Positions 3,332 to 26,654 of a DNA stretch of 32,000 nucleotides are shown here, one piece after another (positions within the stretch are counted from its first letter, which is position 1; every line of letters begins with the position of its first letter). This DNA comes from Acaryochloris marina MBIC11017. Lineage in GTDB: Bacteria > Cyanobacteriota > Cyanobacteriia > Thermosynechococcales > Thermosynechococcaceae. The stretch is from contig NC_009925.1 in assembly GCF_000018105.1 (NCBI RefSeq), positions 630,001 to 662,000 of the forward strand, written 5' to 3'. Under the pieces are notes generated by a model. It was not told where the DNA came from. It did not search any database and saw only the letters and a program-made list of their open reading frames with translations. A program made the translations under genes and the position numbers.

Positions 3332-4786
3332 GTGTACATCAATCTTCCGGTCGTTGGTAAGGTCAAGAAACCTAAGGTATGGGTGGTTGGCCTGGTAAGT
3401 ACCGTTGTCCTGTTGGGGGCAGTTGGGGCAAGGTCTTTTGTCAATCGGTCTTCGGATAAGCCAACCCTAGAAGACTTGACGGTGGAGGTTGAGTCAAAAG
3501 ATGTCACCCTCCGGATTGGGGCTAGCGGGACGATTACGCCCGCTAAAAGTGTCAACTTAAGTCCCAAGCAAGCAGGCGTTTTGGCCAAGCTGTTGGTGGA
3601 GCAAGGGGACGAGGTTGAAAAAGGGCAGGTCATTGCCCGCATGGATACTCGTGATTTAGAAGGTCAGTTAATTCAAGCGAATGCGTCGGTGGCCCAGGCA
3701 AAGGCTCGGCTGTCGGAGTTGCAGGCCGGTAACCGCCCAGAGGAAATTCAACAGGCCAGGGCTCGTTTGGTCCGAGCGGAGGCCCAGCTCGCCCAAATTG
3801 CTGGGGGCAATCAACTGGAAACCATTACCCAGGTGCAAAGCCAAGTGGAGTCGGCGAAAGCTCGTCTGAGATTAGCTTTGACTCGCCTGAATAGTTTTGA
3901 ACAGCTCTACAAAGCAGGGGCAGAAACCCGCGATCGCAGGGACGAAGCCAAAGCAGAAGCGGATACCGCCCGAGCCAACTTAAGAGAGGTGCAAAAGCGC
4001 CTGCAAATCTTACGGCAAGGGTCTCAACCGGCAGAGGTTCTAAGGGCTAAAGCCGATGTGGCGGAAGCCCGCCAAGCCTACCAGCTGATGCAGAAAGGCA
4101 GTCGCCCAGAAGCAATTCTGCAAGCAAAAGCGGCAGTAGCTGAGGCTCAGGGCCGTCAGCAGGTGGTGATGACCCAGGTCAACGATACGATTATTCGCGC
4201 CCCCTTTGCAGGCATCATTACCCAAAAATTTGCGACGGAAGGGGCCTTTGTAACGCCTACAACGACTGCATCGAGTACCTCTTCGGCCACTTCGACGTCT
4301 ATCGTGGCCTTAGCCCAAAAGCTAGAGGTGTTAGCCACGGTGCCTGAAATTGATATTGGTCAGATCCGACCCGGTCAGTCTGTTGAAATTCGGGCAGATG
4401 CGTTCCCCGATCAGGTTTTTAAGGGGCGCGTTCGGTTGGTGTCACCAGAAGCGATTGAAGAGCAAAATGTCACCTCCTTTCAGGTCAGGGTAAATATTAC
4501 CTCTGGGCAAGACAAGCTGCGATCAGGGATGAATTCAGATCTCACCTTCTTGGGGGATACCGTTGCCGACAGCATGGTGCTACCCACCGGTTTGATTGCC
4601 ACAAAAGATGGAAAAACGGGGGTCTATATCCCTGATGAAGATGGCAAGCCTAAGTTTCAGCCAGTAACGACTGGGTCATCGATCAAGAATCAAACCCAGA
4701 TTCTAGAGGGTGTAACCCCCGGTCAAAAAGTTTTTGAAACGTTTCCAGAAGGTCAAAAGCCCGAAGATTTAAAAGAGGAAGAGTAA
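3332..4786 (+). CDS. HlyD-family periplasmic adaptor (membrane fusion protein) of a DevBCA/MacAB-type ABC exporter
   Basis: 484 aa with an N-terminal TM anchor. It has a long alpha-helical hairpin with internally repeated RPEE(I/V)..A.A....A segments and a C-terminal beta-barrel region. The gene ends 2 nt before the permease start. The GTG start at 3332 is uncertain (alternative GTG at 3383). Confidence 0.85.
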   Translation: MYINLPVVGKVKKPKVWVVGLVSTVVLLGAVGARSFVNRSSDKPTLEDLTVEVESKDVTLRIGASGTITPAKSVNLSPKQAGVLAKLLVEQGDEVEKGQVIARMDTRDLEGQLIQANASVAQAKARLSELQAGNRPEEIQQARARLVRAEAQLAQIAGGNQLETITQVQSQVESAKARLRLALTRLNSFEQLYKAGAETRDRRDEAKAEADTARANLREVQKRLQILRQGSQPAEVLRAKADVAEARQAYQLMQKGSRPEAILQAKAAVAEAQGRQQVVMTQVNDTIIRAPFAGIITQKFATEGAFVTPTTTASSTSSATSTSIVALAQKLEVLATVPEIDIGQIRPGQSVEIRADAFPDQVFKGRVRLVSPEAIEEQNVTSFQVRVNITSGQDKLRSGMNSDLTFLGDTVADSMVLPTGLIATKDGKTGVYIPDEDGKPKFQPVTTGSSIKNQTQILEGVTPGQKVFETFPEGQKPEDLKEEE

Positions 4787-4788
4787 CC

Positions 4789-6006
4789 GTGGATATCCTC
4801 GAAAGCGTAAAAATGGCTTCAGCGACGCTAGTCGCCAACCGCCTGCGCAGTAGTTTGACGATGTTAGGGATGATTATTGGCAATGCTTCTGTTATTGCCA
4901 TGATCGCCGTGGGGCAAGGGGCCCAAAAGTATGCTTCCGGTCAGTTTGAGTCCCTAGGACCCAACATTCTATTTATCGTTCCGGGAACTGATAAAGCCCG
5001 CCGACAGACCTTTGAAGTGCCCAAGACCTTGGTTTGGGCGGATGCTAAAGCAATTAAAGAAGCGGTATCTGCAGTTCAATCTGTTATTCCTCAACTTCAG
5101 AATCAGTTGACCACTGTTTACCAAGGGGCGAATACAACGGCCTTGGTGATGGGCACAACGGATGAATATCCAATTGTGCGGAACCATGATGTGGCTAAAG
5201 GTCGATTTCTTAGCCCGCAAGATATCCAGCGAGGCAATTTGGTGGCTGTATTAGGCACTGATCTGGCTAAGCGCTTGGTGGGGTCTGAAAATCCAATTGG
5301 TAAGCGAATTCGGATTAAAAACCTCAATTTTGAAGTCGTTGGATTAATGGAGGAAAAGGGGTCTTTCCTTGGGAGTAGCCAAGATGATGTGATTTTTATT
5401 CCCATTTCAACGATGGCGAATCGGGTGGTGGGATCTACATCTCCCTTTGGTACTGAGCTAACGTTTATCTCGGTCTCTGCTAAAGATGAAGCCAGTATTC
5501 CCTCAGCAGAGTTTCAGATCCGTAATCTGTTGCGGATCCGCCACAAAATTATTGACGAAGATGATTTCACGATTCGGACTCAAAAGCAGGCGTTGGAAAT
5601 TATCGGCAATATCAGCGGTGCTTTGACGGTTATGTTGGCTGCAATTGCGAGTATTTCTCTGCTGGTAGGTGGTATTGGCATTATGAATATCATGCTGGTG
5701 TCCGTGACGGAGCGGATTCAGGAAATTGGCCTCCGCAAAGCCATTGGAGCCTCACAATCCGATATTTTGGTCCAATTTATGATCGAAGCGATTATTTTGT
5801 CTGCCGTAGGCGGCATGATTGGCACCTTCGTTGGCGTGGGTGGCACGGTGATGGTCAGCAGCCTCACACCTTTGGAAACAGGTATTTCCGTTCCGGCTGT
5901 AATGTTGGCTGTGGGGGTCTCAGGGGGAATTGGTCTGTTTTTTGGAGTCGTTCCGGCCCGACGGGCGGCTCAACTGGATCCAATTGTGGCTCTGCGCAGT
6001 GCTTAA
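4789..6006 (+). CDS. MacB/FtsX-type ABC transporter permease (DevC-like)
   Basis: 405 aa. The N-terminal ANRLRSSLTMLGMIIG motif, a large periplasmic domain, and a C-terminal FtsX-like 3-TM bundle (ERIQEIGLRKAIGA) are present. A GTG start best fits the family N-terminus. Confidence 0.9.
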   Translation: MDILESVKMASATLVANRLRSSLTMLGMIIGNASVIAMIAVGQGAQKYASGQFESLGPNILFIVPGTDKARRQTFEVPKTLVWADAKAIKEAVSAVQSVIPQLQNQLTTVYQGANTTALVMGTTDEYPIVRNHDVAKGRFLSPQDIQRGNLVAVLGTDLAKRLVGSENPIGKRIRIKNLNFEVVGLMEEKGSFLGSSQDDVIFIPISTMANRVVGSTSPFGTELTFISVSAKDEASIPSAEFQIRNLLRIRHKIIDEDDFTIRTQKQALEIIGNISGALTVMLAAIASISLLVGGIGIMNIMLVSVTERIQEIGLRKAIGASQSDILVQFMIEAIILSAVGGMIGTFVGVGGTVMVSSLTPLETGISVPAVMLAVGVSGGIGLFFGVVPARRAAQLDPIVALRSA

Positions 6007-7677: not shown

Positions 7678-8043
7678 GTTGTTCCACTTTATAAGCCAGT
7701 GACAGTTGGTATGGCAATCGCCATATCGAGAAGGACGTAAACTACACGCCCTTTTCTCGTAGCTAGGCCCCTTGGTGCAATATCTCAGATCTCGTAACGT
7801 TATGTCCCGTTATCCAGAGAAAAATTTGCTGGATCTTTTCTAAAAGATGTGTGTATGGACTCATTAAATATCTTGAATTGCATAAAAATTAATATTTACC
7901 CTGATATCTCAAGATAGCTTCCAAAAGCTAGATAGAACCTTGTGATCTTTGTTTGTCCTTGTTCCTATCTTTTTCCTGAGTCAGAAGTAGAAATTTGAAT
8001 GTGGATTTATCAATCAAGGATAAGGTTCTTTTTCCTCGGAAAG

Positions 8044-8604
8044 ATGCAGTTCAGTGGTTTGATATTGAGTGTTGTTATATTTCCGTTGAGTTTAGTCAAC
8101 ACTTCTCAAGCTCAACTCATAATACCTGCTGGTCAAGTTCAACCACCCCCAATACCTGCCGGTTTTACTTTGCAAGATGCACGACAACAAGGTAGACAGC
8201 TAACTATTGATACAAGAAAAACAATACGTAAGTTACCTGAGAATTTTAAAACTACTAGGACACCGATCATCTGGCTGAGTTGTAATCCTGGAGGACTAGA
8301 AGAAAATAATGTTTTGGTTATTCACAGCCCAATTTTGATTCATCTGTCTGAAGTTCTTTTGACTGAGAAAGCAATTTGGCATGATACGCGTTCCCCATTA
8401 GAGCTTAAACAGATACCTATCAAAGGATTCAGTGAATATTTTTCAAAACACAGCCGTAAACTTGGTGATCAATCTATTAGCCCGCATATAACTCAGGCAA
8501 CCCAATGGATTCGAACCAAGGACAATAAAATGAAACTTATATATGGAGGTGTTAGGCCATTGCCCTCTTCCCAAACCTCTTCAAGACCTTGCCGAAAGAA
8601 ATAG
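8044..8604 (+). CDS. Hypothetical secreted protein (unknown function) in an AT-rich segment
   Basis: The ORF track gives 7999..8604. The internal ATG at 8044 yields a typical signal peptide (MQFSGLILSVVIFPLSLVNTSQAQ). I recognised no family motif. One 60-nt line (8221-8280) is 38% GC by hand count. Confidence 0.4.
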   Translation: MQFSGLILSVVIFPLSLVNTSQAQLIIPAGQVQPPPIPAGFTLQDARQQGRQLTIDTRKTIRKLPENFKTTRTPIIWLSCNPGGLEENNVLVIHSPILIHLSEVLLTEKAIWHDTRSPLELKQIPIKGFSEYFSKHSRKLGDQSISPHITQATQWIRTKDNKMKLIYGGVRPLPSSQTSSRPCRKK

Positions 8605-8686
8605 TACAGATCGCTCCCTTGCAAAAATTTCAGATTTTTGCCGGTTTACTCTGCAAAAGCTGCGCTATGATAGTAAAGCCAAATTT

Positions 8687-8768: not shown

Positions 8769-9058
8769 TTCTCTCTAAGACATTAGAACGTTACCCATCT
8801 TCTTCGGAAAGGTCGAGATTGTGGCTAACTTATTGCGTCGTTTTTATTGAATCCGGATGGGAGTGTTATAGGATGTCTGTAGGGTCAGCATCCAAGCATT
8901 AACTGTGTTGACTGCCTTAGGTGTATTTAGTCTGCGATCGCAAGTGTCGTTTCAGCCTAACGTAAACCACTTCATTTCAAACTTTGATTTAAGCGGATTC
9001 CGTTAAGTTAGACTAAGACAATCTGTTAAAATGCTTAAAGATTCTACAAGATTGCCAC

Positions 9059-10104: not shown

Positions 10105-11094
10105 ATGGCCACTGGATTGGCAGTTACTGGGTGCGGCTCTGCTGCTCCTGAGACTTCCCTGGATAATCATGGTCTGAGCCAAATCGTTGATACCTCTGAT
10201 GAGTGGATTGCAAGCCGAACGGGCATCCGATCTCGGCACCTCGCGGGTCCAGATGACACGTTGGCAAAACTGGGTGCGATCGCAGCCCAAAATGCCTTAG
10301 AGATGGCCCAAGTGGAAGCCACTGATCTTGATCTAATACTGCTGGCCACTTCGACCCCTGACGATTTGTTTGGTAGTGCCTGTCAGATTCAGGCTGCAAT
10401 TGGTGCAAAGCATGCCGTTGCCTTTGACCTCACTGCTGCCTGTTCTGGGTTTGTATTTGGCATGATTACGGCTGCCCAATTTATCCGCACGGGGGTCTAC
10501 CGCAATGTCCTCCTGGTCGGAGCTGATGTGCTCTCTCGTTGGGTAGACTGGACCGATCGTCGATCTTGTGTCCTCTTTGGGGACGGAGCAGGCGCGGTGG
10601 TTCTCCAAGCCAATGACACCGATCGCCTGCTCGGATTTGCTTTACACAGCGACGGCTGTTTACATGATTGCCTCAATGTCCAATATCAGGGCGAGGCACG
10701 TCCCTTGACTGGGGAAATTAATGTTAGTCAAGGGACATATCAACCTATTTCCATGAATGGGAAGGAAGTCTACCGGTTTGCAGTGAATCGAGTGCCTGAA
10801 GTCGTGGAGAAGGCTCTCTTTCAGTCGGACTTAAAAACGGACGATATTGATTGGTTGCTCTTGCACCAGGCAAATCAGCGCATTCTCGATGCGGTGGCCA
10901 AGCGCCTCAAGGTGCCTGCTGAGAAGGTGATTAGTAATATCGCCAACTATGGCAATACCTCTGCCGCTACGATTCCTTTAGCGTTGGACGCAACGGTTCG
11001 CAAAGGTCATATCAAACCTGGAGATACGATTGCGGCCTCTGGATTTGGGGCTGGCTTGAGTTGGGGCGCGGCTATCTTTCAGTGGCAGCGCTAG
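10105..11094 (+). CDS. fabH: Beta-ketoacyl-ACP synthase III (FabH)
   Basis: Active-site Cys in AACSGF, His in LHQANQRI, and Asn in NYGNTSAATIP. The track start at 10051 overlaps plsX. ATG at 10105 (or GTG at 10096) gives the family-typical N-terminus. Confidence 0.93.
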   Translation: MATGLAVTGCGSAAPETSLDNHGLSQIVDTSDEWIASRTGIRSRHLAGPDDTLAKLGAIAAQNALEMAQVEATDLDLILLATSTPDDLFGSACQIQAAIGAKHAVAFDLTAACSGFVFGMITAAQFIRTGVYRNVLLVGADVLSRWVDWTDRRSCVLFGDGAGAVVLQANDTDRLLGFALHSDGCLHDCLNVQYQGEARPLTGEINVSQGTYQPISMNGKEVYRFAVNRVPEVVEKALFQSDLKTDDIDWLLLHQANQRILDAVAKRLKVPAEKVISNIANYGNTSAATIPLALDATVRKGHIKPGDTIAASGFGAGLSWGAAIFQWQR

Positions 11095-11996: not shown

Positions 11997-12323
11997 TTAG
12001 GCTAGCCCTTCAACGGCACGGCGGAATTCTTCTACCTCATCGCCGAATTCGATGTCCATGACCGCTTCCACATTTTCATGGGGACGAGGAATAATCACCC
12101 AAGTCTCCAAAACACCACCGGGTGTTTTCTCCGCTGCTGCCACACCAGCATCCATAGCCATTTTGACTTCAGACACATCCCCGCGAATATTGATCGTAAA
12201 CCGAGCACTCCCTGCTCGGATATAACCAACTAAGGTCACACGCCCAGCTTTGACCATGGCATCTGCTGCCGCCAATACGGGGGGGAATCCTTTCGTTTCC
12301 AGTGACCCAACTGCCTGTGGCAT
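11997..12323 (-). CDS. ccmK4: Carboxysome shell BMC-domain protein, CcmK4-like
   Basis: The BMC fold signature is present (GFPPVLAAADAMVKAGRVTLVGYIRAGSARFTINIRGDVSEVK ... TWVIIPRPHENV). It closely matches my recollection of Synechocystis CcmK4. ATG at 12323 has GAGGAA upstream and is preferred over the TTG at 12338 in the track. Confidence 0.85.
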   Translation of the reverse strand: MPQAVGSLETKGFPPVLAAADAMVKAGRVTLVGYIRAGSARFTINIRGDVSEVKMAMDAGVAAAEKTPGGVLETWVIIPRPHENVEAVMDIEFGDEVEEFRRAVEGLA

Positions 12324-12379: not shown

Positions 12380-12691
12380 TCACGTTCGAAAGGGTTCAGA
12401 ACGTTCTGAGTAATCAATCGGCAAAATCGCCTCAATATTCTCAGGGGGATTTGGCACGATATAGTGGGATTCAACTTTAGCTGAACCAGGCATCCCTTCA
12501 ACAGCGGCAATACCTGCCTCCATGCCCCGCTTTACTTCCGCCACAGGTCCACGAATGGAGATCACATAGCGACCGCTGGCGCAGCTCGTGTACCCCATCA
12601 GGGCCACACGACCGGCTTTGACCATGGCATCTGCTGCTGCTAAAACAGCCGGATATCCATAGGTTTCAATCATTCCAACGGCAACTGGCAT
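12380..12691 (-). CDS. ccmK3: Carboxysome shell BMC-domain protein, CcmK3-like
   Basis: BMC domain (MPVAVGMIETYGYPAVLAAADAMVKAGRV ... ISIRGPVAEV ... HYIVPNPPENI), which is CcmK3-like. It is upstream of the ccmK4-like gene on the same strand, as at the satellite ccmK3-ccmK4 locus of other cyanobacteria. Confidence 0.8.
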   Translation of the reverse strand: MPVAVGMIETYGYPAVLAAADAMVKAGRVALMGYTSCASGRYVISIRGPVAEVKRGMEAGIAAVEGMPGSAKVESHYIVPNPPENIEAILPIDYSERSEPFRT

Positions 12692-13236: not shown

Positions 13237-14196
13237 ATGCTGCACTTTGAACAGGTCAGTTTGCAATTCCCAAGTGTGCCAGAGCCAACATTACGAAGCT
13301 GCACTTTTAAAGTCGAGGCTGGGGAATTGGTGGTAATTTTGGGGCCATCAGGTTGTGGCAAAACCACCTTATTAAAGCTGGTTAACCGTTTATACGAGCC
13401 TACTTCAGGACAGATCTCCCTCAATGGTAAAGGCATTCATACGCTTCCCCTGACTACCCTGCGTCGCCAAATGGGATATGTCATCCAGCAGGCAGGTTTA
13501 TTTCCCCATATGACCATTGCCCAAAATATTGCGGTCGTACCTAAGTTATTGGGGTGGCCTAAAACTGAGATCGCTGCTCGGGTAGAGGAATTATTGGAAC
13601 TTGTTCAACTCCCCCAAGCGTTTGGCAAACGCTATCCCAGTCAACTTTCCGGTGGACAGCAGCAACGGGTGGGGTTAGCCCGAGCTTTGGCGGCTAAGCC
13701 AGAAGTGTTACTAATGGATGAGCCCTTTGGGGCTTTGGATGCCATTACTCGTAAATCTCTGCAACAAGAGCTGCAGCAGTTACAGCAACAATTCAAAAAA
13801 ACGATTCTGTTTGTCTCCCATGACATTGAAGAGGCTTTACGACTAGCTGATCGGATTTTGATTCTCAATCAGGGGCATTTGGTCCAATACGGGACACCGT
13901 GGCAAATCCTCACCCAACCTGCCTCTGCTTTTGTTGAAGCATTAGTAGGTACTGAGGATGTTCTAAAACAGCTATCGGTTTTGTCTGTAGAACGAGTGAT
14001 GGTAACCACAGCTTCTTCCGTTCCCCATCTTCCCAAAATTGCTAATCATGGCACGTTACGAGATGCCTTGTCCATGTTATTGAAGTCAGGTCAATCGCAA
14101 TTACAGGTTATGAATGGGACAGACGCAGTGGGAATTTTAGATCTCAATCATATTCAAACCGTTTGGCAAGATCCAACCCATTTTGATGGAGGCTAA
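13237..14196 (+). CDS. Osmoprotectant (glycine betaine/choline, OpuC/ProV-type) ABC transporter ATP-binding protein
   Basis: Walker A GPSGCGKTT, FPHMTIAQNI, signature [16 protein letters not shown], and Walker B LLMDEPFGALD. A short CBS-like C-terminal tail is present. Confidence 0.85.
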   Translation: MLHFEQVSLQFPSVPEPTLRSCTFKVEAGELVVILGPSGCGKTTLLKLVNRLYEPTSGQISLNGKGIHTLPLTTLRRQMGYVIQQAGLFPHMTIAQNIAVVPKLLGWPKTEIAARVEELLELVQLPQAFGKRYPSQLSGGQQQRVGLARALAAKPEVLLMDEPFGALDAITRKSLQQELQQLQQQFKKTILFVSHDIEEALRLADRILILNQGHLVQYGTPWQILTQPASAFVEALVGTEDVLKQLSVLSVERVMVTTASSVPHLPKIANHGTLRDALSMLLKSGQSQLQVMNGTDAVGILDLNHIQTVWQDPTHFDGG

Positions 14197-14240
14197 GAGC
14201 ATTGAATCTGTTGTGATAGTTTGTGATTGAGTCTGCTAAA

Positions 14241-15080
14241 TCAAAGTACAGCAGAACTTTTATCTCTGACCCGATCATAGAATTCTTCCATAACGGCTAG
14301 GAAGGATTGCTCCTTTGGCCAAAAGGCTGGAAAGTCGCCTTGGGTTTTAACCAAAATCCCAGAGACTCCCGTCGAGGGTGGGGCATTAATGGTTTGGGGA
14401 AGTCGTTTGTCTCCTTGCCAAAAGTCTTTGAGCTGTTCGATCTCGGATGCGGGGGTGGTGAGGGGCTGGGTGTAATAGCTGGTGTCTGGTTCCAGCTCTG
14501 TTTGCTGGGCAGTGAGTTCAGCGGATAATGCTTGACCGAGGGGGGATTTCGCGAGTTCCTTTTGTAAGTTTTCCCGAGACAGACCTCGTAGCTCAAACAG
14601 CAAAAATGGGTCTTGGTCCAGCTCTGCAGCTAATAGGTAATAGACGCCAGCAATATGTTTGCAGGGATTGCTCCAGTCGGGACAAGAACATTGAGTCTTG
14701 AAATTTGTATTGCTACGGGGTAGCAGGTTTAAATCCAGCTTGGCAAAGGCATCTTCGATATTGTCAGGCATTTCGTTTAGCATCAGCCGTGAGATCAGAC
14801 TGGCTTTGGATGCGATAAATGCGATCGCAGCTGCCCAATTGGCTTTGCTAATCGGCTCAAACTCAATGCTGGTTTCATACAAAGGCTCTTTATAAACCCC
14901 AAAATAAGGATTCACCGAGCCGCGAACTTCAGCTTTCACCAACCCATCTTTAAGAGTAAAACTTTTGACTTTATTCCCCCGAGCATAGGATCGTCCTCGC
15001 CCCAAACGCCCTGGATCGGTAATTTGCTCAATTGCTGTAAGGAACCGTTGTCCCCACCAGGTTCGACTGAAGTTAGCCAT
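14241..15080 (-). CDS. SWIM zinc-finger family protein (SNF2-partner type)
   Basis: 279 aa with the SWIM signature CSCPDWSNPCKH (CxC-x(n)-CxH). The N-terminal WWGQRF...GRL.RGR.YAR segment is typical of bacterial SWIM proteins found beside SNF2 helicases. Confidence 0.85.
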   Translation of the reverse strand: MANFSRTWWGQRFLTAIEQITDPGRLGRGRSYARGNKVKSFTLKDGLVKAEVRGSVNPYFGVYKEPLYETSIEFEPISKANWAAAIAFIASKASLISRLMLNEMPDNIEDAFAKLDLNLLPRSNTNFKTQCSCPDWSNPCKHIAGVYYLLAAELDQDPFLLFELRGLSRENLQKELAKSPLGQALSAELTAQQTELEPDTSYYTQPLTTPASEIEQLKDFWQGDKRLPQTINAPPSTGVSGILVKTQGDFPAFWPKEQSFLAVMEEFYDRVRDKSSAVL

Positions 15081-15657
15081 TGGTGATTATTCCTCTAAAT
15101 ACGTCCTGGGCCGTTAGTTCTAGCTCAGGGAATAATTCATCACTCAGAATGCGGTTCTCTCGATAGGTAATGGGTAATTGTTCAGGCATAAACACCGTAA
15201 TCGTTTTTGCCTTGGGATCTACGATCCAGACTCTGGATATGCCTGAACTTAAATAGTCTGTTGCCTTTTCCGCCATACCGCCGAAGGATTGATCCGGTGA
15301 GATGACTTCGATTGCCAATTCGGGGGGGACAAGGCAGGGACCATCATCATCTCCCATACTAGAGAGACGTTCATTGGAGATATAGAGCAAATCAGGAACG
15401 GGGACCCAAGGTTTGCCCTCTCGGGATAGGATAACCGCCCATTCAATACCCACTTCTCCTCGATCTTGTGCCCACTGTCGGAGCAATACGTATAACTCAC
15501 CTGAAGTCCGAGAGTGGAAACGTTGTGGAGACATTTTAGGAATCGCTTCTCCATCAATGAGTTCACAGGCCGTTTCACCCTCAGGAAGAGAGAGAAACTC
15601 ATCTAGGGTTAGTTTTCGCGTGACAGCCGGGGTCATGATTTGCTTCGCCTTGGGCAA
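15073..15657 (-). CDS. Uma2-family (DUF820) PD-(D/E)xK putative endonuclease
   Basis: 194 aa. LTLDEFLSLPEGE..ELIDGE, PDLLYI and PELAIEVISP match the Uma2 restriction-endonuclease-like fold core. Its stop overlaps the SWIM start codon (ATGGCTAA, 8 nt). Confidence 0.8.
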   Translation of the reverse strand: MPKAKQIMTPAVTRKLTLDEFLSLPEGETACELIDGEAIPKMSPQRFHSRTSGELYVLLRQWAQDRGEVGIEWAVILSREGKPWVPVPDLLYISNERLSSMGDDDGPCLVPPELAIEVISPDQSFGGMAEKATDYLSSGISRVWIVDPKAKTITVFMPEQLPITYRENRILSDELFPELELTAQDVFRGIITNG

Positions 15658-15740: not shown

Positions 15741-17207
15741 TTAATTCTTGGAAGAGTCACGGAAGACATTAGGCGTCCAGCTACCGTGGAATCCATGAGG
15801 AATATGATGCTGAAGGTGTAATTTTGCAATGACGGTGTTCAGATCTTGGGCATCTAAAATGGCCAAATAAGAACGATAGGTAGCGGCATCAAATACGAGA
15901 GAGAGTAACCACCCATCATCTTCTTGAGTGCTATCGGGGCGAGGGACAAAAATCGGTTCACCCGGAAATGCTCTGGGAGCGACACTCCAGATTTGCTGTT
16001 CACCGGATTCTTTATCGAGCTTAAGAATGGCTTGCAGGGGACCATTTTTATCTGAACTGTCACAGACACTCATATATACATAACGATGCTCTTTTCCTAC
16101 CCATTGGGGATGCACGGAGGGAAATTCACAGCCTCTTTCAACTACTTTTCGGTGGACTACCTTTTTAGATGATAAATTGACCTCAAATTCCCATAATTCG
16201 CCTGTGGGGAAAGACTCAAAGTCAATTTGCTCAAAATCTAACTCGTCTTGCTGTTTCTGGGGGAAGAAATCACTACAAACGGATTCAAAGTAGAGTTTTC
16301 CTTCTTTCTCCCAGGCATTGCCATGGTGAAATCCAAAGAATGAATCGGTTTCTAATATCTCTAGGTCATGATTGCCATGGCGAGAAATCAGAATGATTTT
16401 AGTGGGTTGCTCTGGATTGAAGTCAAAACATTGTTCAATAGTTTTGAAACCCAGCAGAAAAGGCAATCCTTTTACCTGAAAGGGATGCTGCACAAAGATG
16501 CAGTAATTTTCTGTTACTAACATGTCGTGCAAGAAAGCAAACCCTGATAAAGGATGAGAGGACTGTTTTAATGGGTTGCCTTGCTCATCGAGTTCAAAGA
16601 TGGTTAAGCTTTGGGACGCAATCCCTTTAACGCCAAAATTAATAAAACGGCCATCAATGATTCTGGGGTGAGCCGAAAAAGGCTGATCGGCTGTGAGTAG
16701 TCCATCTAGAGTGTCTGGACCAATGGTTTCTAGGGTCTCAGGAGTGAGCTGATGGGGATGGCCGCCTTCCCACATCGCCCATAATTTATCTCCCCAGTAA
16801 ATCACGCTGGTGTTTGCCGCATTTTTGAAATTGGTATTAAAAATATTGGCTAGCCATCCTCCCGCTTTTTGGGTGCCAAACCCTCGGTATAGGATTTTCC
16901 CAGCGGCTTGTTCTTTGAGATAGCCTTCTGTGCGAACGTAGCGATTTTGAAAGTGGGCACGACCTTGCTCAAAGGTGATGGCACAGATCATGCCGTCTCC
17001 ATCAAAGGGATGGCCGATTTTTTGGCCGTTGACTTCTAAGCTGCCAGCTCCATTCCGGAACAACGTCCCTTGCAGTTCTGGGGGAATGGTGCCTTCTACT
17101 TCATCAATCCAGTAACTATATTCATTCAGCTGTGATTCATAACCTTTGGCCCAGTCTTTGACTAGAGAAGCGTTTTTGCTTAATTTCTCTGATGCAATAG
17201 CTGTCAT
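15741..17207 (-). CDS. Carotenoid cleavage oxygenase (apocarotenoid-15,15'-oxygenase-like, RPE65 family)
   Basis: 488 aa. The conserved iron-ligand His contexts are present (SAHPR, FLHDM, FHHGNAWE, HIPHGFHGSW), and the length is typical of cyanobacterial ACO. Confidence 0.9.
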   Translation of the reverse strand: MTAIASEKLSKNASLVKDWAKGYESQLNEYSYWIDEVEGTIPPELQGTLFRNGAGSLEVNGQKIGHPFDGDGMICAITFEQGRAHFQNRYVRTEGYLKEQAAGKILYRGFGTQKAGGWLANIFNTNFKNAANTSVIYWGDKLWAMWEGGHPHQLTPETLETIGPDTLDGLLTADQPFSAHPRIIDGRFINFGVKGIASQSLTIFELDEQGNPLKQSSHPLSGFAFLHDMLVTENYCIFVQHPFQVKGLPFLLGFKTIEQCFDFNPEQPTKIILISRHGNHDLEILETDSFFGFHHGNAWEKEGKLYFESVCSDFFPQKQQDELDFEQIDFESFPTGELWEFEVNLSSKKVVHRKVVERGCEFPSVHPQWVGKEHRYVYMSVCDSSDKNGPLQAILKLDKESGEQQIWSVAPRAFPGEPIFVPRPDSTQEDDGWLLSLVFDAATYRSYLAILDAQDLNTVIAKLHLQHHIPHGFHGSWTPNVFRDSSKN

Positions 17208-17751
17208 ACCATTTTTACGAAGATTTGTAATAATCTTAGCGTGAAAAAACTATGCCAAAATCGCAGCGATGTTGAAGTAGCGTTGTACATGCCAGAATTA
17301 AATGACATTTTCTCAAAATTATTGTCAAAACCCTAAATTCTTGAGAAATATACCAGGTAAAGATTTTGGGGAAATACAGATTTCCTCTTCACTGAATATC
17401 TTTCAATAATTAAATACCATTTTTTCAGAATCATTTTAGAATTTTCCAGGGTTGGTTGTCATTTGTCAGCTTGACCTCAGTGGTTAATCTACTTATGTTT
17501 CTGATGACATTGTTGTTCATGAAATGGCTTCTTAAATATTGTGAATAGAGAATTAAAAACTACTAATATGTCACTATTTTGTTCGATTCAGAAGGATTAA
17601 ATGATACTTGATATCTAATTTACTTTTGGAGATTTTCATGCGAGTCTTGACATCAGTTTTTTTGTATAGAGAAGTTGTACGTCAGTCTGCCATATAACCA
17701 TAGTAAGATGAAAAGTTTTCGTGTAGTAAAGTTTTAGGTAAATAGTATTTT

Positions 17752-18546
17752 ATGGGTAAGCGAGTAACAATAAGCCCCCTGAGTATATCCTCAATGTTTA
17801 TTGAGCTTTTATATGATGATATAAGCCTAGGTTCAGGTAGCGCATTTTATCTAAAAAACAACAACAGATTATACCTAATAAGTAATTGGCATAATTATTC
17901 TGGGAGAAATCCAAAAACGAGAAAGCCTATACATAAAGAATGTGCAATACCGAATAAGGTAAAAGTTTATAGTTACAACGAAACCGATCAAGGCTTTGCT
18001 ATTGAAGAAAAGGTTTATGATTTATTAGACAACAATGAAATTTCCACTTGGTACGAGCATTGTGAGCTCGGGAGTAAGGTTGATGTAGCCGCATTACCTA
18101 TCAATGATGAAGATCTAGGTGATGTCATTGACATTGAAAGAGCGATAGAACTTGTTGACCCGTACGATAGCGAAACCATAAAAATTAGTGACAGTCTTTT
18201 TATTCTTGGTTATCCCTTTGGTTTAAGGGTTAATGATTCACTCCCTATATGGAAGTCAGCAACTGTAGCAAGTGAACCAGAAATAGACTGCGGTAGTGTT
18301 CCAATGTTTTATATTGATACAGCTACAAAAGCAGGTATGTCAGGCGCTCCTGTTATTATGTATAGGAAACGAGCAATACCTATATTTGGTGATGGCAAGT
18401 CAAGTGTGTATCACGCTGAATTTATAGGGATTTATTCTGGCCGAGTTATACCTAGAGATTTAATAGAGGTGCAACTTGGTAAAGTTTGGAAGAAGTCTTG
18501 TTTGCCTTCAGTTTTAAATGGTAGCAAGTACAGCTATTTTGCCTAA
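17752..18546 (+). CDS. Trypsin-like (S1/Trypsin_2-type) serine protease, no signal peptide, no accessory domain
   Basis: 264 aa. The triad is in chymotrypsin-like order and spacing: His in GSGSAFYL...LISNWHN, Asp in KVDVAALPI, Ser in TKAGMSGAPV. The N-terminus is not hydrophobic. The gene sits in a very AT-rich islet (hand counts of 32% and 23% GC on single lines). Confidence 0.75.
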   Translation: MGKRVTISPLSISSMFIELLYDDISLGSGSAFYLKNNNRLYLISNWHNYSGRNPKTRKPIHKECAIPNKVKVYSYNETDQGFAIEEKVYDLLDNNEISTWYEHCELGSKVDVAALPINDEDLGDVIDIERAIELVDPYDSETIKISDSLFILGYPFGLRVNDSLPIWKSATVASEPEIDCGSVPMFYIDTATKAGMSGAPVIMYRKRAIPIFGDGKSSVYHAEFIGIYSGRVIPRDLIEVQLGKVWKKSCLPSVLNGSKYSYFA

Positions 18547-18689
18547 CAAATTGCTTCCCTCGGATTTGTTACTCGTTACGCTTTCAGGTAAATAGACTAA
18601 TCCTGTGCGTAGAAATTGAGCCATCAGTTCTCGAATCTTTCGCAGCATGGACTAGGTCGACTCACACCTTAATGAGGTCTTCTATTTCG

Positions 18690-21600
18690 TTAGTCCAAGA
18701 TAGCGCTCTTGTTGAGGGAAATGAGCTTCCTAAAGGACTCATTATCTAGTTCTGTTAACCACGACTCGTCCGAACCAACAATCGCACCAGCCAGTTTTTT
18801 CTTGTCCTCAATCATTTCGTCAATCCGTTCTTCTAGGGTGCCGATGGCGACGAACTTATGGACAAATACATTTTTTTTCTGGCCGATGCGGAAAGCTCGG
18901 TCCGTAGCTTGATCCTCCACTGCCGGATTCCACCAGCGATCGAAGTGGAAGACGTGATTGGCCTTGGTGAGGGTGATGCCGACGCCCCCTGCTTTGAGGG
19001 ACAGAATAAACACAGATGGCCCAGTCTCAGGATCTTGAAACTCAGTAATCATCTGTTCTCGCTTATTGCGGTTGGTGCCGCCATGAATGTAGTAGGTGGT
19101 GTAGTGGTGGGTTTGACGCAGATATTTTTCCAAGGCATCACCGAGTTCGGTGAACTGGGTGAATACCAAAAGACTTTCCCCTTCCTCCATGACTTCAGTG
19201 ATCATCTCCGTGAGACGGCTGAGTTTATGGGAACGCTCGGGGGTGAAGTCGCTTTCATCTTGGAGGAACTGACGGGGATGGTTGCAAATTTGCTTGAGCT
19301 TTAGCAGGGTAGAGAGAATCATGCCCTTGCGCTGAATGCCGTCTACTTCGTCAATATCTTTGGAAATCTCTTTGACAACAGCTTCGTAAAGGGAGGCTTG
19401 TTCTTTGGTGAGGTTGCAGTAGAGTTTTTGCTCAACTTTGTCGGGTAGGTCTTTGATAATCGATTTGTCCGTTTTTACCCGCCGCAGGATAAAGGGCTCC
19501 ACTAGCTTTTTGAGAGTGGTTGATTGCCTGCGGTTATTGTCTTTTTGGATCGGCAGTTCAAAGTTCTTACGGAATTGGTTTTGCTTGCCTAAGTACCCCG
19601 GATTGAGGAAGTTGAAAATGGACCACAAATCCAGCAGTCGATTTTCTACGGGGGTGCCAGTGAGGGCCAGTCGGTGGGTGGCTGAGAGCTTAAGGATGGC
19701 TTTGGTTTGGGCGGCTTTGGGATTTTTGATATTTTGAGCTTCGTCTAAAACAATCCGATGCCAAGGAACAGCATCTAGTAGCTTGCTATCCCTGCGGGCG
19801 AGACTAAAGGACGTAATCACTACATCGTTTTGGTTCGCCATTGCCTTAAAGTCTTTGGCGACTTTGGCTCGTTCATTGCCGTGGTGAACGATGGCCTGTA
19901 AATGGGGAGCAAATTTCTGAATTTCTCGCCGCCAGTTGCCCACCACTGAGGTGGGGGCAATCAGCAGGGTCGGGGGGACGGTTTCGGCTTCTTCCCTTTC
20001 CTGAGCCAGACGAGCAATTACCTGAACGGTTTTTCCTAGGCCCATATCATCGGCCAAGCAGCCATTTAGACCGAGTTGCTCTAGGTAGTTCAACCAGGAG
20101 ACACCTCGCTTTTGGTATTCCCGTAGGGTTCCTTGCAAGGTTTCAGGATCTGAGATCGCATCCAGCTTACTCTTATCCTGAAGCTGCTTCAACATCTGGG
20201 CCAGGGTCTTATCGCGGTTAAAATCCACCTCCACATCCTCTCCCCCTTCTGCGGTCATCCGCATAAAGTCTAGAAGGGTCATATCGGGATTTTCGGCCTG
20301 CTGAGTTTTCCAGAACTCCAGCATCTGCTGCATTTTGTCTTGGTCGAGGTGCATCCACTGGCCCCGAAACTGTACTAGAGAGGATTTAGCCTGTACCAGC
20401 TCCAACCATTCCTGTTCAGACACCTTCTGATCGCCAATGGCTAGGTCGTACTTATATTCGACCAACCGATCTTGGGAGAAGTAACTCTTCGACTTATTGT
20501 TGGTGCTGGACATGGATCGACCCTTAGCCCGCAGCTTAATTTTGGCTCGCTGCCGACCTTTGGGCGTCCACCAGGCAGGCACAATTACTTTGTAGCCTGC
20601 GTTCTCTAATACCCAGGCGGATTCCTGTAAAAAGTCTAGGGCAGCACCAATCTCCAAAGGAATACCAATCGGTTGGTCGGTTTCTAGTCCCTGCCAAAGC
20701 TGAGGATAAATTCGAGCAGCATACCCTAAGCCGAGCAATAGATGCTGCTCGAAACTCTCACCCAAATGCTTTTGTAATTCCATTTGTTTTTGGGGTTTGA
20801 ACCGCCAGTATTCTGCAAGGGAAATTTGCAGGGACGGATCTTGTTTGGGGGCGACGAGAAACTGCAATTGCCAAGGTTCGTCTGGGAGCGGGGGATCCTG
20901 AAGCTGAAAGCAGAGATAGAAGGAGTTCGAGGTTTGGGTTTTACGGATGCGATCTCGCCACACTCGCCACTGCTCATACAGCTCCTGATTGATGCTTCGG
21001 CCATCACGCATTCCTGGTTGCCAACAATCCTCAATCAAAGTGCTGGCAATTTTTTTCGTAAAGCTGGCGGGTAAATAGGTTGCGGTAATAATTTCAGTCA
21101 ATAAATGTTCTGAAAAATGCCGCAACAGCGTTTTTCGATCATAAAAAGTGGGGGTTGGAGGACATTCTGAAAACCCAGCTACACAGGCTAAAGGCATATA
21201 GTCCACAAATCGATCTAGCTCAGTTTCATAGGATTCACTGACAATTTCCCAGGCTGGATAGATTTCGACAGACTGAGATTTGGTCCGAGATTTAGATTTG
21301 CTACGAGAGCCTTTGGCAGATGACACTTCTCGGTAACGCAGGGCTGGAATGTATTGATCCTTCAGTAAGACGGGTTTGAGGGTTTGGGTGTAGTGGTACC
21401 AAAACAGCAAATCTGCCCCGAGCTGCATATCTGCAAGATTATGCAGGGCAATAAAATGCAGCTCATTGAGCAGCTTGATAATGTCGGTGACAGGTTGCTG
21501 CTCATACTGCCCGGTTTTGACCCAGGTTTTGACCTCAAAGCATTCCACCTGCCAATACTGCCACTCAAAGGCCTCAGGAATGGCTTGTTCTAGGTATCGG

Positions 21601-21872
21601 GATAGTTCTAGGGAGGGGAGTGGCGCTTGATCCGTGCTGGGCAGCAAGAAATGGCGTGAATCAATCAGTTGTTCTAGGGGGCGACCGGGTTTTACACCTA
21701 GCTCATTGCTGAGGAAGTCTTCTAAGTCATCCCTGACTAACTGATAGGGATGAATGGAACGGCCCGTTTTGCGTTTCTTTTTTGGTTCTGTTGTTTCCAC
21801 CCAAAGATAGAAAGCGCCTGATTGTATAAATGTAGCTTCGTCAGGAATCCAGGTTCCGTGGATGATCTTCAT
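18690..21872 (-). CDS. SNF2-family DNA-dependent ATPase/helicase with bacterial SNF2-associated N-terminal region
   Basis: 1060 aa with an intact motif set: LREYQKRGVSWL, I DDMGLGKT, II DEAQNIKN, III LTGTPVENRL, IV LVFTQF, V LKAGGVGITLT, VI DRWWNPAVEDQATDRAFRIGQ. The roughly 570-aa N-terminal region (IHGTWIP..FYLW) is typical of the SWIM-partnered bacterial subgroup. Confidence 0.93.
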   Translation of the reverse strand: MKIIHGTWIPDEATFIQSGAFYLWVETTEPKKKRKTGRSIHPYQLVRDDLEDFLSNELGVKPGRPLEQLIDSRHFLLPSTDQAPLPSLELSRYLEQAIPEAFEWQYWQVECFEVKTWVKTGQYEQQPVTDIIKLLNELHFIALHNLADMQLGADLLFWYHYTQTLKPVLLKDQYIPALRYREVSSAKGSRSKSKSRTKSQSVEIYPAWEIVSESYETELDRFVDYMPLACVAGFSECPPTPTFYDRKTLLRHFSEHLLTEIITATYLPASFTKKIASTLIEDCWQPGMRDGRSINQELYEQWRVWRDRIRKTQTSNSFYLCFQLQDPPLPDEPWQLQFLVAPKQDPSLQISLAEYWRFKPQKQMELQKHLGESFEQHLLLGLGYAARIYPQLWQGLETDQPIGIPLEIGAALDFLQESAWVLENAGYKVIVPAWWTPKGRQRAKIKLRAKGRSMSSTNNKSKSYFSQDRLVEYKYDLAIGDQKVSEQEWLELVQAKSSLVQFRGQWMHLDQDKMQQMLEFWKTQQAENPDMTLLDFMRMTAEGGEDVEVDFNRDKTLAQMLKQLQDKSKLDAISDPETLQGTLREYQKRGVSWLNYLEQLGLNGCLADDMGLGKTVQVIARLAQEREEAETVPPTLLIAPTSVVGNWRREIQKFAPHLQAIVHHGNERAKVAKDFKAMANQNDVVITSFSLARRDSKLLDAVPWHRIVLDEAQNIKNPKAAQTKAILKLSATHRLALTGTPVENRLLDLWSIFNFLNPGYLGKQNQFRKNFELPIQKDNNRRQSTTLKKLVEPFILRRVKTDKSIIKDLPDKVEQKLYCNLTKEQASLYEAVVKEISKDIDEVDGIQRKGMILSTLLKLKQICNHPRQFLQDESDFTPERSHKLSRLTEMITEVMEEGESLLVFTQFTELGDALEKYLRQTHHYTTYYIHGGTNRNKREQMITEFQDPETGPSVFILSLKAGGVGITLTKANHVFHFDRWWNPAVEDQATDRAFRIGQKKNVFVHKFVAIGTLEERIDEMIEDKKKLAGAIVGSDESWLTELDNESFRKLISLNKSAILD

Positions 21873-26202: not shown

Positions 26203-26258
26203 GTTAGCCCAATGGGGTGACGATAAAAATGGTGATTAAAGGGATATGGCACTCATGG

Positions 26259-26654
26259 CTAGGGACAACACAAGAGTTTTTGGCGCTGATATAAACCAAA
26301 GATCGCCTCAAAAAGACGGGAAAGCGCAATTCTGAGAGAAATTGGCAACAGATTGAAGTCCTGTGTGAGCAGACGATAGACCAACCAACCCAGAGGACGT
26401 TGGTCTCGACTTGACTTCGAAAAACTTACAAAATTTGAGAGTTGATGAATAGCGCTATCGTACTGGAGAGGAGAAGGTTTGGACCGAAAAGATTGCCGCC
26501 ATATGCTGAAACGCCTATAGCGCAGTCCTTTTTCTGCACACCAGAGTGAATGTAAAGGAATGAAAAGTGTTACGGTAAAATGCAGCCTGTTGGCTGGTGT
26601 TGTATTGAATTGATCTGCCATGTTCCTTGTTTTCTTTCTTGTCAGTACAATCAC
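26259..26654 (-). CDS. Hypothetical basic protein (doubtful ORF)
   Basis: 131-aa ORF (120 aa from ATG at 26621). It is rich in R/S/L/F, I recognised no motif, and its start region collides with the divergent BON-like ORF. Confidence 0.3.
   Translation of the reverse strand: MIVLTRKKTRNMADQFNTTPANRLHFTVTLFIPLHSLWCAEKGLRYRRFSIWRQSFRSKPSPLQYDSAIHQLSNFVSFSKSSRDQRPLGWLVYRLLTQDFNLLPISLRIALSRLFEAIFGLYQRQKLLCCP

Follow-up and report, generated by a model that had tools for sequence, protein, structure and literature searches.

A strain-specific trypsin-fold protease gene of Acaryochloris marina, most likely a fossil integron cassette and plausibly a one-gene defence module

Proteolysis as an immune output follows a known logic (PMC13434031; doi 10.1101/2025.09.03.673762). 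RT-protease systems (UG/Abi class XI) have a reverse transcriptase fused at the N-terminus of the protease; the Lamassu LmuA-protease occurs with LmuB/SMC; the trypsin-MBL / HamMAB pairs have an adjacent MBL nuclease; and the gasdermin-activating proteases have a gasdermin or NTPase partner. A trypsin-like protease is also listed in PADLOC as the single-gene candidate PDC-S45 (PDLC05022), which is itself a computational candidate only. In addition, integron cassettes encoding streamlined anti-phage systems have been described (Darracq et al. 2025; Getz et al. 2025; Kieffer et al. 2025); in the literature searched, reports of tested defence cassettes name no protease cassette. For the V. cholerae integron, activity against phages was seen in 18% of the tested cassettes, almost 10% of all its cassettes (Darracq et al., doi 10.1101/2024.07.02.601686), which sets the base rate of defence among integron cassettes at only 10-18%.

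The window analysed here is a 32 kb stretch of the chromosome of A. marina MBIC11017, and its features are listed in Table 1. It contains an AT-rich islet with one protease gene, AM1_0663. The islet is best read as a fossil integron cassette that codes for a one-gene defence protease, and we give this reading an even chance of being right as a whole; the origin is fairly secure, and we infer the function.

Table 1. Positions of the protease gene, the islet elements and the flanking genes in the 32 kb window.
Feature	Position	Strand	Basis
SWIM gene, left flank, beyond Uma2	14241-15080		kept in L081 and L082
Uma2 gene, left flank, beyond the oxygenase	15073-15657		kept in L081 and L082
RPE65-type carotenoid oxygenase gene, left flank, outside the element	15741..17207	-	Pfam E 9e-145; kept in L081 and L082
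Strain-specific AT-rich islet	17242..18689	.	blastn homology breaks; GC; slot contents unlike those of the relatives
Distal leader, AT-rich, non-coding	17242..17605	.	no ORF >35 aa; no Rfam match; repeats D1, D2
Proximal leader element, probably promoter/operator DNA	17606..17708	+	shared with the region upstream of the pREC4 TIR-effector gene
Direct repeat, left copy, 14 nt (TTTTAGGTAAATAG), just before the start codon	17732..17745	+	repeat D6
AM1_0663, single-domain cytoplasmic chymotrypsin-fold serine protease gene, 264 aa	17752..18546	+	identity, Pfam, triad, AF2, Foldseek, phrog_7688, PDC-S45
Triad codon His47	17890-17892	+	29-member alignment A1
Triad codon Asp111	18082-18084	+	29-member alignment A1
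Triad codon Ser197	18340-18342	+	29-member alignment A1
Vestigial attC	18541..18581	+	register shared with homolog cassettes; best covariance-model match, not significant
Direct repeat, right copy (TTTCAGGTAAATAG), directly after the attC vestige	18582..18595	+	repeat D6
SNF2 helicase gene (DUF3670 + SNF2 + Helicase_C), right flank, outside the element	18690..21872	-	domain matches; beside the slot in L081 and L082

The ORF product is 100% identical to a protein of A. marina MBIC11017, for which no NCBIfam name and no literature were found. The AF2 model (pLDDT 89.8, pTM 0.90) shows a confident chymotrypsin fold with a double β-barrel. Foldseek matched the exfoliative toxins, V8/Esp, and DegS (E ~1e-6, TM ~0.5); 118 PDB structures were matched at E<=1e-3, and the best 50 of 118 listed are S1 proteases. 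By PDB profile search the sequence relation is very weak (best E 1.8e-4), and the score for Pfam Trypsin_2 (PF13365), 28.5 bits, lies marginally above the gathering cut-off of 27.6. The viral structural analogues found by the BFVD search were generic chymotrypsin-like viral proteases only. A complete His/Asp/Ser triad had been proposed from the letters alone, and it aligns across a 29-member family alignment: His47 and Asp111 are invariant, and Ser197 is present in 28 of the 29 members, in the context GMSGAP. The ordered His-Asp-Ser residues with the G-x-S-G-x-P motif, the fold, and the Pfam score assign the protein to the clan PA / S1-type proteases. None of the 29 members has a signal peptide, a TM segment, or a hydrophobic N-terminal segment; the N-terminus forms a β-strand of the fold (pLDDT ~96). 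Pfam identified Trypsin_2 only and no PDZ domain, and the protein ends 67 residues past Ser197. By these in silico results, the islet gene product is a cytoplasmic, stand-alone trypsin-fold protease.

Among the known families, phrog_7688 (PHROGs, function unknown) is the best profile match (E 3.8e-27), aligning residues 9-229 with model positions 6-227 of 288 (222 of 288 positions). It is a phage/prophage protein family, whereas the window copy is chromosomal and lies outside any prophage. All 29 members match phrog_7688. In the PADLOC profiles, PDC-S45 was matched by 29/29 members, RT-Protease_XI by 24/29, and LmuA by 5/29. The window protein resembles PDC-S45 in being single-gene and trypsin-like, and the best family member reaches E 6e-21. 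However, the match of the window protein covers only residues 137-233 (~97 residues; 98/293 model positions; 39 bits, E 1e-10), while a true member scores ~4e-94; this makes it a sister family of PDC-S45 rather than the same family. Both are linked to phages: PDC-S45 proper is reported from a Sinorhizobium prophage (PMC12429752), and relatives of the window family occur in phage SfII. The protease domain is also homologous to that of the RT-protease systems (RT-Protease_XI, E 4e-8, model positions 345-501 of 510), although the window protein, with 264 aa, corresponds to the protease part only. Homology to LmuA was detected as well (E 3e-4), but LmuB/SMC is absent from the islet and does not recur in the homolog loci. 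Likewise, no MBL nuclease recurs in 79 homolog loci, no MBL domain is present in the top Pfam list of 150 neighbours, and a gasdermin or NTPase partner is absent both here and in the homolog loci. The best structural matches are HtrA/DegP/DegS and the staphylococcal V8/exfoliative-toxin S1 proteases, and they share the D-x(7)-S-G-x-P active-site motif with the window protein. The window protein differs from HtrA/DegP/DegS, as the sequence-only reading had stated, in having no PDZ domain, signal peptide, or membrane anchor, and its family has motifs of its own (PIWK, YSGR, and QLGxVW).

The islet occupies a slot of variable content that runs from the SNF2 stop codon to the promoter of the carotenoid oxygenase gene. 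Its GC content is 35.2% (17242-18689, synteny-bounded, ~1.45 kb), against a mean of 48.1% (sd 3.8%) for same-size windows across the 32 kb, and the lowest GC values of the whole window fall here. The GC3 of the protease gene is 28%, compared with 42-54% in six neighbouring genes. The AT-rich islet noticed earlier is real, and the GC counts that had been made by hand on three single lines are exact (23.3%, 31.7%, and 50.0%). The protease gene is the only ORF of at least 60 aa in the islet, and, as had been noted, it lies on the strand opposite to all four neighbouring genes. As for the neighbours themselves, the SNF2 gene does lie on one side; the direct left neighbour is the carotenoid oxygenase gene, not Uma2/SWIM as had been described. 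The order SNF2 - slot - carotenoid oxygenase - Uma2 - SWIM is kept in two relatives (loci L081 and L082; ~85% DNA identity), where the slot holds not the protease but a PAP_fibrillin gene or a kinase-FGE-sulfatase gene. These slot contents are unrelated to the islet, and comparison with it gave no similarity. Because the relatives share the flanks but have unrelated genes in between, the islet counts as strain-specific and as independent of the genes beside it. By blastn, homology to both relatives stops at 18690 on the right; on the left it ends at 17241 (L081) or 17168 (L082). A G|TT recombination junction at 18689/18690 was considered and rejected: the break falls on the stop codon of SNF2, a point past which the three strains all differ in the way expected of intergenic DNA. 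More distant cyanobacteria (oxygenase 77% identical) do not keep SNF2 in the adjacent position and so offer no reading of the ancestral state of the slot. It is fairly secure that the islet is a horizontally acquired, strain-specific filler of a variable intergenic slot of the chromosome.

The protease family comprises 1,757 clusters at E<=1e-30; the best 150 of these 1,757 are nearly all 250-290 aa long, that is, nearly always single-domain. The closest proteins are from Vibrio and a gammaproteobacterial MAG (52-57% identity), and all others share at most 46%. Together with the other genes found in the slot of the same-flank relatives, these homologs bear out the horizontal acquisition that had been suggested from composition. 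The only cyanobacterial homolog among the organism-named matches is the window's own protein, and the family is rare and patchy in distribution. The carriers of its members are integron cassettes and attC arrays, 95 plasmids (conjugative plasmids among the carriers), the moron locus of a prophage, and a tRNA-Lys mini-island; the gene exceeds its flanks in AT content at 58 of 70 loci. The partner search covered the called ORFs of 80 homolog loci, with four genes per side clustered by all-against-all BLASTP. No conserved partner gene was identified, the largest neighbour cluster being 5/79 loci, and Pfam assigned 20 tightly linked neighbours to unrelated housekeeping or miscellaneous functions. 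The earlier impression that there is no partner gene in the islet extends in this way to the 79 homolog loci. When the window protein was compared with 50,697 phage records by tblastn, no close homolog was found at E<=1e-5; the Shigella phage SfII carries a truncated relative after its lysis genes, which is matched by distant members only. This is a distinct and nearly always solitary family that travels from one bacterium to another as a single gene.

In three Vibrio species, sedentary chromosomal integrons carry the closest homologs as one-gene cassettes. Each of these copies, in V. splendidus, V. parahaemolyticus, and V. cholerae, is flanked by attC repeats, with 127 attC matches that all lie on one strand, and the V. 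splendidus array begins with an integron integrase (TIGR02249, 460 bits). The attC abuts the stop codon in seven homolog loci (L014, L018, L030, L034, L040, L074, and L075), and attC sites of the R''-L''...L'-R' type, folding into a long imperfect hairpin, lie directly downstream of the homologs in L083, L087, L090, L018, L030, L034, L040, and L075. Like these cassettes, the window gene is a single short ORF with its stop codon in or next to an R'' core; in this and in its cassette-like size it resembles the streamlined anti-phage cassettes. The vestige consists of an R''-type core, GCCTAAC, across the stop codon, followed by the 5' arm CTAACAAATTGCT and R'-like sequences, GTTACTC / GTTACGC. 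The first core survives, while the middle of the site (the L''/L' part) is missing. The sequence GCC-TAA-CAAATTGCT (GCC TAA CAA) stands in the register of the attC in the cassettes of Vibrio (V. splendidus, V. parahaemolyticus), Luteimonas, Reinekea, and Alteromonadales. The attC covariance model (R1) gave its best score in the window at this position, although the score is not significant (8.7 bits, E 3.8). The fold of the vestige is -3.6 kcal/mol, against -18 to -29 for the true attCs of the homologs, and an 8-bp hairpin at this position arose in 177 of 20000 shuffles. Covariance model and folding gave no functional attC directly downstream of AM1_0663, and neither an integrase, a further attC, an array beside an integrase, nor an attC cluster was found in the 32 kb window, in which respect the locus differs from the anti-phage cassettes.

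The gene is also bracketed by the direct repeats of Table 1. The left copy includes TTAGGT, as expected for the 5' end of a cassette; the ~850 bp between the repeats is a cassette-like size, and 1 of 3000 shuffles gave a match of at least 13/14 between the two flanks of the ORF. Two further candidates were rejected. A complete attC from 18541 to a GTTAGTC at 18689 is not supported, as the covariance model and folding support the 41-nt vestige only. An attC-like palindrome at 8955-9013, found by regex scan, has arms that match at 9/14 positions by hand count, and its region is conserved with the relatives. Cassette origin is observed for the homologs, and for the window the evidence is suggestive; for the A. 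marina copy, a fossil integron cassette is the likeliest reading.

The defence association of the family is circumstantial. In the V. splendidus integron the neighbours include AbiTii, a Shedu SduA_C domain, and DUF4365, and on plasmids they include a dGTPase and a ThsA/LmuA-like SIR2. As a raw count, ~11-12 of 150 neighbours within two genes are strong PADLOC matches. The searched literature holds no tested function for the family, PDC-S45, or phrog_7688. Of the conflict-system role that had been suggested, the plausibility stands, through the PDC-S45, RT-Protease_XI, and LmuA matches and the carriage by integrons, plasmids, and prophage; defence itself would go a step beyond these data. Its most likely function would be that of a self-contained module against phages or mobile elements. 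The cassette would have been acquired horizontally, keeping the first attC core across the stop codon and losing the rest of the recombination site, and the gene now probably uses an Acaryochloris-type element upstream as its promoter. The protease might stay latent until infection and then cleave either a phage protein or a host protein that is essential, and it would need neither the SNF2/Uma2/SWIM genes nor a leader RNA.

If the defence reading is true, the family would represent a partner-less trypsin-fold protease as a complete immune module, and the question would arise of how a bare protease stays harmless until infection. The locus would also outline a concrete route by which cassettes leave integrons, from marine Gammaproteobacteria to a cyanobacterium, with the attC lost and a local promoter apparently gained, and it would offer an experimental handle in a host whose anti-phage immunity is little studied. 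If it is false, the islet is still a clean but ordinary example: a foreign, strain-specific gene placed in a slot of the chromosome whose content varies.

The product might instead be an accessory intracellular protease without an immune role (regulatory or quality-control, peptide-processing, or selfish toxin-like cargo), mobile in itself and placed in defence company through guilt by association. We regard this as unlikely, but it deserves serious weight. Ordinary housekeeping genes make up most of the neighbours of family members, a conserved sensor or partner is absent, and 82-90% of the integron cassettes tested elsewhere had no defence activity; moreover, NCBIfam has no name for the protein, and a protease fold is silent on the substrate. 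On the other hand, defence genes appear repeatedly among the neighbours, the family is homologous to the RT-protease and Lamassu protease modules and to a PADLOC candidate, and it is rare, patchy, and AT-rich and occurs on integrons, plasmids, and a prophage.

Integron cassettes are usually promoterless. A cassette that landed outside an integron might be unexpressed or useless in A. marina and simply have yet to decay. The degraded attC, the promoter-like count in the islet, which is at chance level, and the restriction of the gene to A. marina MBIC11017 (among organism-named matches; L081 and L082 do not have it) are consistent with such an inert relic, which nevertheless appears improbable. 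The ORF is intact, and at the 19 invariant and 12 near-invariant positions it has the residue of the family throughout, as it must by construction of the alignment summary. Furthermore, an Acaryochloris-type element sits 44-146 nt before the ATG. These ~100 nt of the proximal leader recur upstream of an orphan TIR-effector gene (CAP12/Pycsar TIR domain) on plasmid pREC4 of A. marina MBIC10699, in the same orientation and ~120 nt upstream of that gene. A search of 7.3 Gb of plasmids gave no other match; the identity is 72% (E 3e-4 with the 510-nt query and 7e-5 with the 167-nt query). The CTTGACAT repeats and TATAACCATAGT of this upstream region would be candidate factor-binding sequences.

For the cassette that encodes a defence protease, a broader proposal can be made from these observations. 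The family might be a minimal one-protein immune system, in which a bare protease both senses the cue and executes, and which is small enough to spread by cassettes across phyla. The orphan effectors of Acaryochloris, the protease and the pREC4 TIR, would then share upstream control, and immunity would be gated transcriptionally by a shared regulator, with no dedicated sensor protein. We consider this generalization distinctly improbable.

The leader was also examined for a structured RNA partner controlling the protease, such as a retron-like ncRNA, a type III antitoxin, or a riboswitch. The 510 nt of non-coding DNA upstream of the ORF (17242-17751), the imperfect 17-28 nt repeats of the distal leader (17294-17323, 17406-17435, and 17593-17609), and the resemblance of the protease domain to that of the RT-protease systems made an RNA conceivable, and the absence of an ORF of at least 60 aa in the leader, as claimed before, was borne out (none longer than 35 aa). 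However, no Rfam match was found in the leader, the fold of the whole leader is no better than that of shuffles (z = +1.08), no reverse transcriptase is present nearby, and the conserved 100 nt, which in pREC4 lie upstream of an unrelated gene, give a negligible consensus structure (-4.7 kcal/mol for the window and pREC4 copies). In the Vibrio cassettes, moreover, just 21-42 nt separate the gene start from the attC before it, so the unit has no leader of its own. The RNA suggested earlier is very improbable. No terminator or tandem repeat was found in the leader. A decayed gene was likewise rejected, as there is no ORF >35 aa, and tblastn with the slot proteins of the relatives and tblastx against all fetched loci were blank. 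Beyond one marginal 49-nt match, nothing in the other fetched loci resembles the distal leader. At its left edge it extends into the -35 region of the oxygenase promoter, with a promoter-like site on the - strand at 17258-17230.

A multi-gene system in which the flanking SNF2/Uma2/SWIM proteins are substrate or trigger, as had been proposed, is hardly credible: the genes are physically adjacent, SNF2 helicases occur in defence systems (the flanking one scores on the ZorD, DpdE, and DrmD models), and ietHAS is a described protease system to which an SNF2 helicase has been added (PMC13069673), but the gene string is conserved in two relatives with other slot genes and no protease, a synteny that largely refutes the idea, a recurrent SNF2, Uma2, or SWIM neighbour was seen in 0/79 homolog loci, and the protease differs from the string in strand and composition. 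The slot genes of the two relatives, for their part, show that the slot changes by means other than cassette insertion alone.

The product of the protease gene is 100% identical to AM1_0663 of A. marina MBIC11017. The gene is the only ORF of at least 60 aa in the islet, on the strand opposite to all four neighbouring genes. The islet has a GC content of 35.2%, against 48.1 ± 3.8% in windows of the same size, and is the most AT-rich part of the 32 kb; the three hand GC counts of the sequence-only reading were exact on recount. GC3 is 28% in the protease gene and 42-54% in neighbouring genes. That reading named Uma2 and SWIM with SNF2 as flanking proteins; the carotenoid oxygenase gene lies directly left of the islet, with Uma2 and SWIM beyond it.

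Contigs of two relatives (L081 and L082) were found by searching with the oxygenase protein, whose orthologues there are 93% and 84% identical. Both share about 85% DNA identity with the window over more than 7 kb on each side of the gap, and both keep the order SNF2, gap, oxygenase, Uma2, SWIM. Homology ends at the SNF2 stop codon (18690) and at 17241, which is roughly 35 nt upstream of where the oxygenase gene starts. In the gap, one relative has a PAP_fibrillin gene and the other has a protein kinase/FGE-sulfatase gene, both encoded on the opposite strand, and no similarity was found among the three gap contents. Presence of the protease gene at this place in close relatives would have counted against the sequence-only reading; the gene is absent there in both, and the islet is strain-specific as judged from these contigs. 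The SNF2/Uma2/SWIM proteins had been suggested as linked to the protease; the string does not depend on it, because the relatives keep the string without the protease gene. The adjacency of SNF2 to the oxygenase gene is absent in cyanobacteria with a 77% identical oxygenase.

Features of the locus and of related sequences
Feature	Sequence	Coordinates	Remark
RPE65-type carotenoid oxygenase	window	15741-17207	left neighbour of islet
Uma2, then SWIM	window		beyond oxygenase, left side of islet
Islet	window	17242-18689	AT-rich
Distal leader repeats	window	17296-17323, 17408-17435, 17593-17609	imperfect direct repeats
Shared upstream element	window	17606-17708
Protease gene	window	17752-18546	+ strand
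Best attC model match	window	18541-18581	not significant
SNF2 helicase	window		right neighbour of islet
Amine-oxidase/FAD gene	L081; L082	13036-14445; 13027-14436	469 aa
Shared upstream element	pREC4 (NZ_AP026079.1)	4001-4104
TIR gene	pREC4	4223-5296	357 aa
41-bp direct repeat	L001, gammaproteobacterial MAG	7881-7921, 8971-9011	perfect
attC after protease cassette	L083, V. splendidus	10784-10906
SfII_57	L101, phage SfII (NC_021857.1)	5013-5633	annotated hypothetical

The window protein matches Trypsin_2 (Pfam) just over threshold. Across 29 aligned relatives, His47 and Asp111 never vary, Ser197 (GMSGAP) is conserved in 28, and PIWK, YSGR and QLGxVW are invariant motifs specific to the family. 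The AlphaFold model is confident (pLDDT 89.8, pTM 0.90), and its structural matches are the exfoliative toxins, the V8/Esp glutamyl endopeptidases and the DegS protease domain (E ~1e-6, TM ~0.5); at the sequence level, no solved structure is more than weakly related. No signal peptide or TM segment was found in the 29 aligned members, and no PDZ domain in family members. The triad, the model and the lack of an export signal agree with the cytoplasmic trypsin-fold protease proposed earlier. Among 1.84 billion cluster representatives, a profile search gave 1,757 family clusters at E<=1e-30, and nearly all of the best 150 are 250-290 aa long; the family is therefore, on these profiles, distinct, rare and essentially always single-domain. 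Rare longer members have N-terminal additions, seen by eye only: P0097 has one that resembles a ribbon-helix-helix DNA-binding domain, P0361 has a zinc-ribbon-like segment of the form CxxC...CxxC, and P0311 begins like a signal peptide.

One genome from each of 185,579 species was scanned; the 283 relatives obtained have a scattered distribution across Gamma-, Beta- and Alphaproteobacteria, Bacteroidota, Firmicutes, Chloroflexota, Gemmatimonadota and CPR. ORF calling and neighbour clustering found no conserved partner gene in 79 loci. The tightly linked neighbours are mutually unrelated (e.g. FtsY, methylmalonyl-CoA mutase, DHODH, UvrD, HsdM, Mrr, Fic and NUDIX); PADLOC matches are strong for about 11-12 of the 150 neighbours that lie within two genes, and housekeeping genes are the majority. 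In 58 of 70 loci, the GC content of the protease gene is below that of its flanks (median -8.8 points). Together with the strain-specific islet, the missing partner bears out the earlier view of a horizontally acquired orphan. Ninety-five plasmids carry a family gene (69 from Klebsiella; 63 of the 95 typed conjugative), with copies adjoining a dGTPase in Klebsiella, a RelE/ParE pair in Acinetobacter and a ThsA/LmuA-like SIR2 protein in Peribacillus. SfII_57 of Shigella phage SfII is a 5'-truncated copy in a post-lysis moron locus, directly adjoining IS911 between the lysis genes and an HNH endonuclease. The second-closest relative (L001, 52% identical protein) lies in a mini-island inside a tRNA gene cluster, bounded by a 41-bp direct repeat. 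The repeat equals the tRNA-Lys(CTT) 5' half as far as the anticodon loop, and the insertion is one gene, about 1.1 kb, without an integrase. It is well supported that the protease gene is foreign, solitary and mobile.

The closest relatives (52-57% identity) are from V. splendidus, V. cholerae and V. parahaemolyticus, where the gene is one unit of an array; the single genes of these arrays all point the same way, with spacers of about 150 bp. An HMM from five intergenic repeats of these arrays found 127 copies, all on one strand, and the V. splendidus array starts with an integron integrase (TIGR02249, 460 bits). By these features the Vibrio copies are chromosomal integron cassettes. Neighbours of the V. 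splendidus cassette include AbiTii, a Shedu SduA_C domain and DUF4365. The attC after this cassette was missed by the HMM that detects the VCR-like repeats of the array, which suggests a different integron pool. An attC covariance model with inspection identified further cassettes in Alteromonadaceae Bs31, Aestuariibacter, an Alteromonadales MAG, Reinekea, Nitrosomonas and Luteimonas; the Pseudoxanthomonas copy is probably also one.

The window gene ends in GCC-TAA-CAAATTGCT. An R''-type attC core (GCCTAAC) and the stop codon overlap here, in exactly the arrangement of the Vibrio and Luteimonas cassettes, and the 13 nt that follow match the 5' arm of the Reinekea attC without a difference. The covariance model has its best match in the whole window at this site, but the match falls short of significance (8.7 bits, E 3.8), since of the attC only both ends remain. 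The folding energy of this remnant is -3.6 kcal/mol; real attCs have -18 to -29. The ORF lies between two copies of a 14-nt direct repeat, TTTYAGGTAAATAG, spaced 850 bp apart, and the left copy includes TTAGGT, as expected at the 5' end of a cassette. Of 3000 shuffles, 1 gave an equally good repeat on the two sides of the ORF, in a test picked after the repeat was seen. These features are suggestive, not proof, of a fossil integron cassette; a cassette origin of the window copy is moderately supported.

The Vibrio copies start 21-42 nt after the preceding attC, so the long leader (17242-17751) is not part of the mobile unit. No ORF above 35 aa, Rfam match or terminator was found in it; promoter counts are at chance, and folding is no better than in shuffled sequence. 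The earlier idea of a leader-encoded RNA partner thus fails on Rfam, folding and a negligible consensus structure. One leader element has a single match in 7.3 Gb of plasmids, 72% identical and in the same orientation. The match is on plasmid pREC4 of A. marina MBIC10699, where a gene starts about 120 nt downstream of it. The product of that gene has a TIR effector domain of the CAP12/Pycsar type at its N-terminus (Pfam E 2e-30; PADLOC Effector TIR E 3e-46) and a C-terminal half without an assigned domain, and no recognisable partner or cyclase was found nearby. Two orphan effector-type genes thus stand behind one upstream sequence of about 100 nt. The two copies yield a negligible consensus RNA structure, and their common blocks (CTTGACATC, TATAGrGAA, TACGTC and TATAACCATAGT) look more like promoter or operator DNA. 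Integron cassettes are normally promoterless, and a promoter-like element would account for expression of such a cassette outside an integron. The distal leader, 360 nt long, also holds imperfect direct repeats of 17-28 nt (AATTAAATGACATTTTCTCAAAATTATT and variants), spaced by 112 and 187 nt.

All 29 members match the PADLOC phage-defence candidate PDC-S45 (best E 6e-21; window protein 1e-10, partial) and phrog_7688, a phage/prophage family whose function is not known (window E 3.8e-27); 24 match the protease part of RT-Protease_XI, and five match LmuA. The conflict-system company proposed earlier is recovered in these matches and in the integron, plasmid and phage carriers. No experimental work on PDC-S45, AM1_0663 or its family was found in the literature searched. 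In the V. cholerae integron, anti-phage activity was found in 18% of the tested cassettes, almost 10% of all (doi 10.1101/2024.07.02.601686). In several systems, trypsin-like proteases have an established place as activator or effector, always with partners (PMC13434031, PMC13069673, doi 10.1101/2025.09.03.673762). We infer the immune role and the trigger of the protease; its most likely function is that of a self-contained anti-phage or anti-mobile-element protease, and the chances of this reading as a whole seem about even. The evidence is suggestive of a sister of a computational defence candidate, kept as a fossil integron cassette in a cyanobacterium.

Other differences from the relatives were observed in the window. 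At 14176-14247, about 70 bp separate SWIM from an ABC ATPase where both relatives have an amine-oxidase/FAD gene; on this alignment it is a second presence/absence difference beside the SNF2-oxygenase-Uma2-SWIM string. In a second lower-GC stretch (7678-8650, 39-42%) lies an orphan ORF of 201 aa (7999-8604) whose N-terminus is hydrophobic, and homology to L081 ends at 8646; this may be another variable segment. At 26209-26530, about 320 bp lie between two L081 homology blocks that are only about 16 bp apart in L081, an indel. Two adjacent BMC-domain (carboxysome-shell-type) genes, identified from the annotation of the relatives, cross-match at 12238-12299 and 12602-12667 over 62-66 nt (77-81% identity), which is consistent with tandem paralogs.
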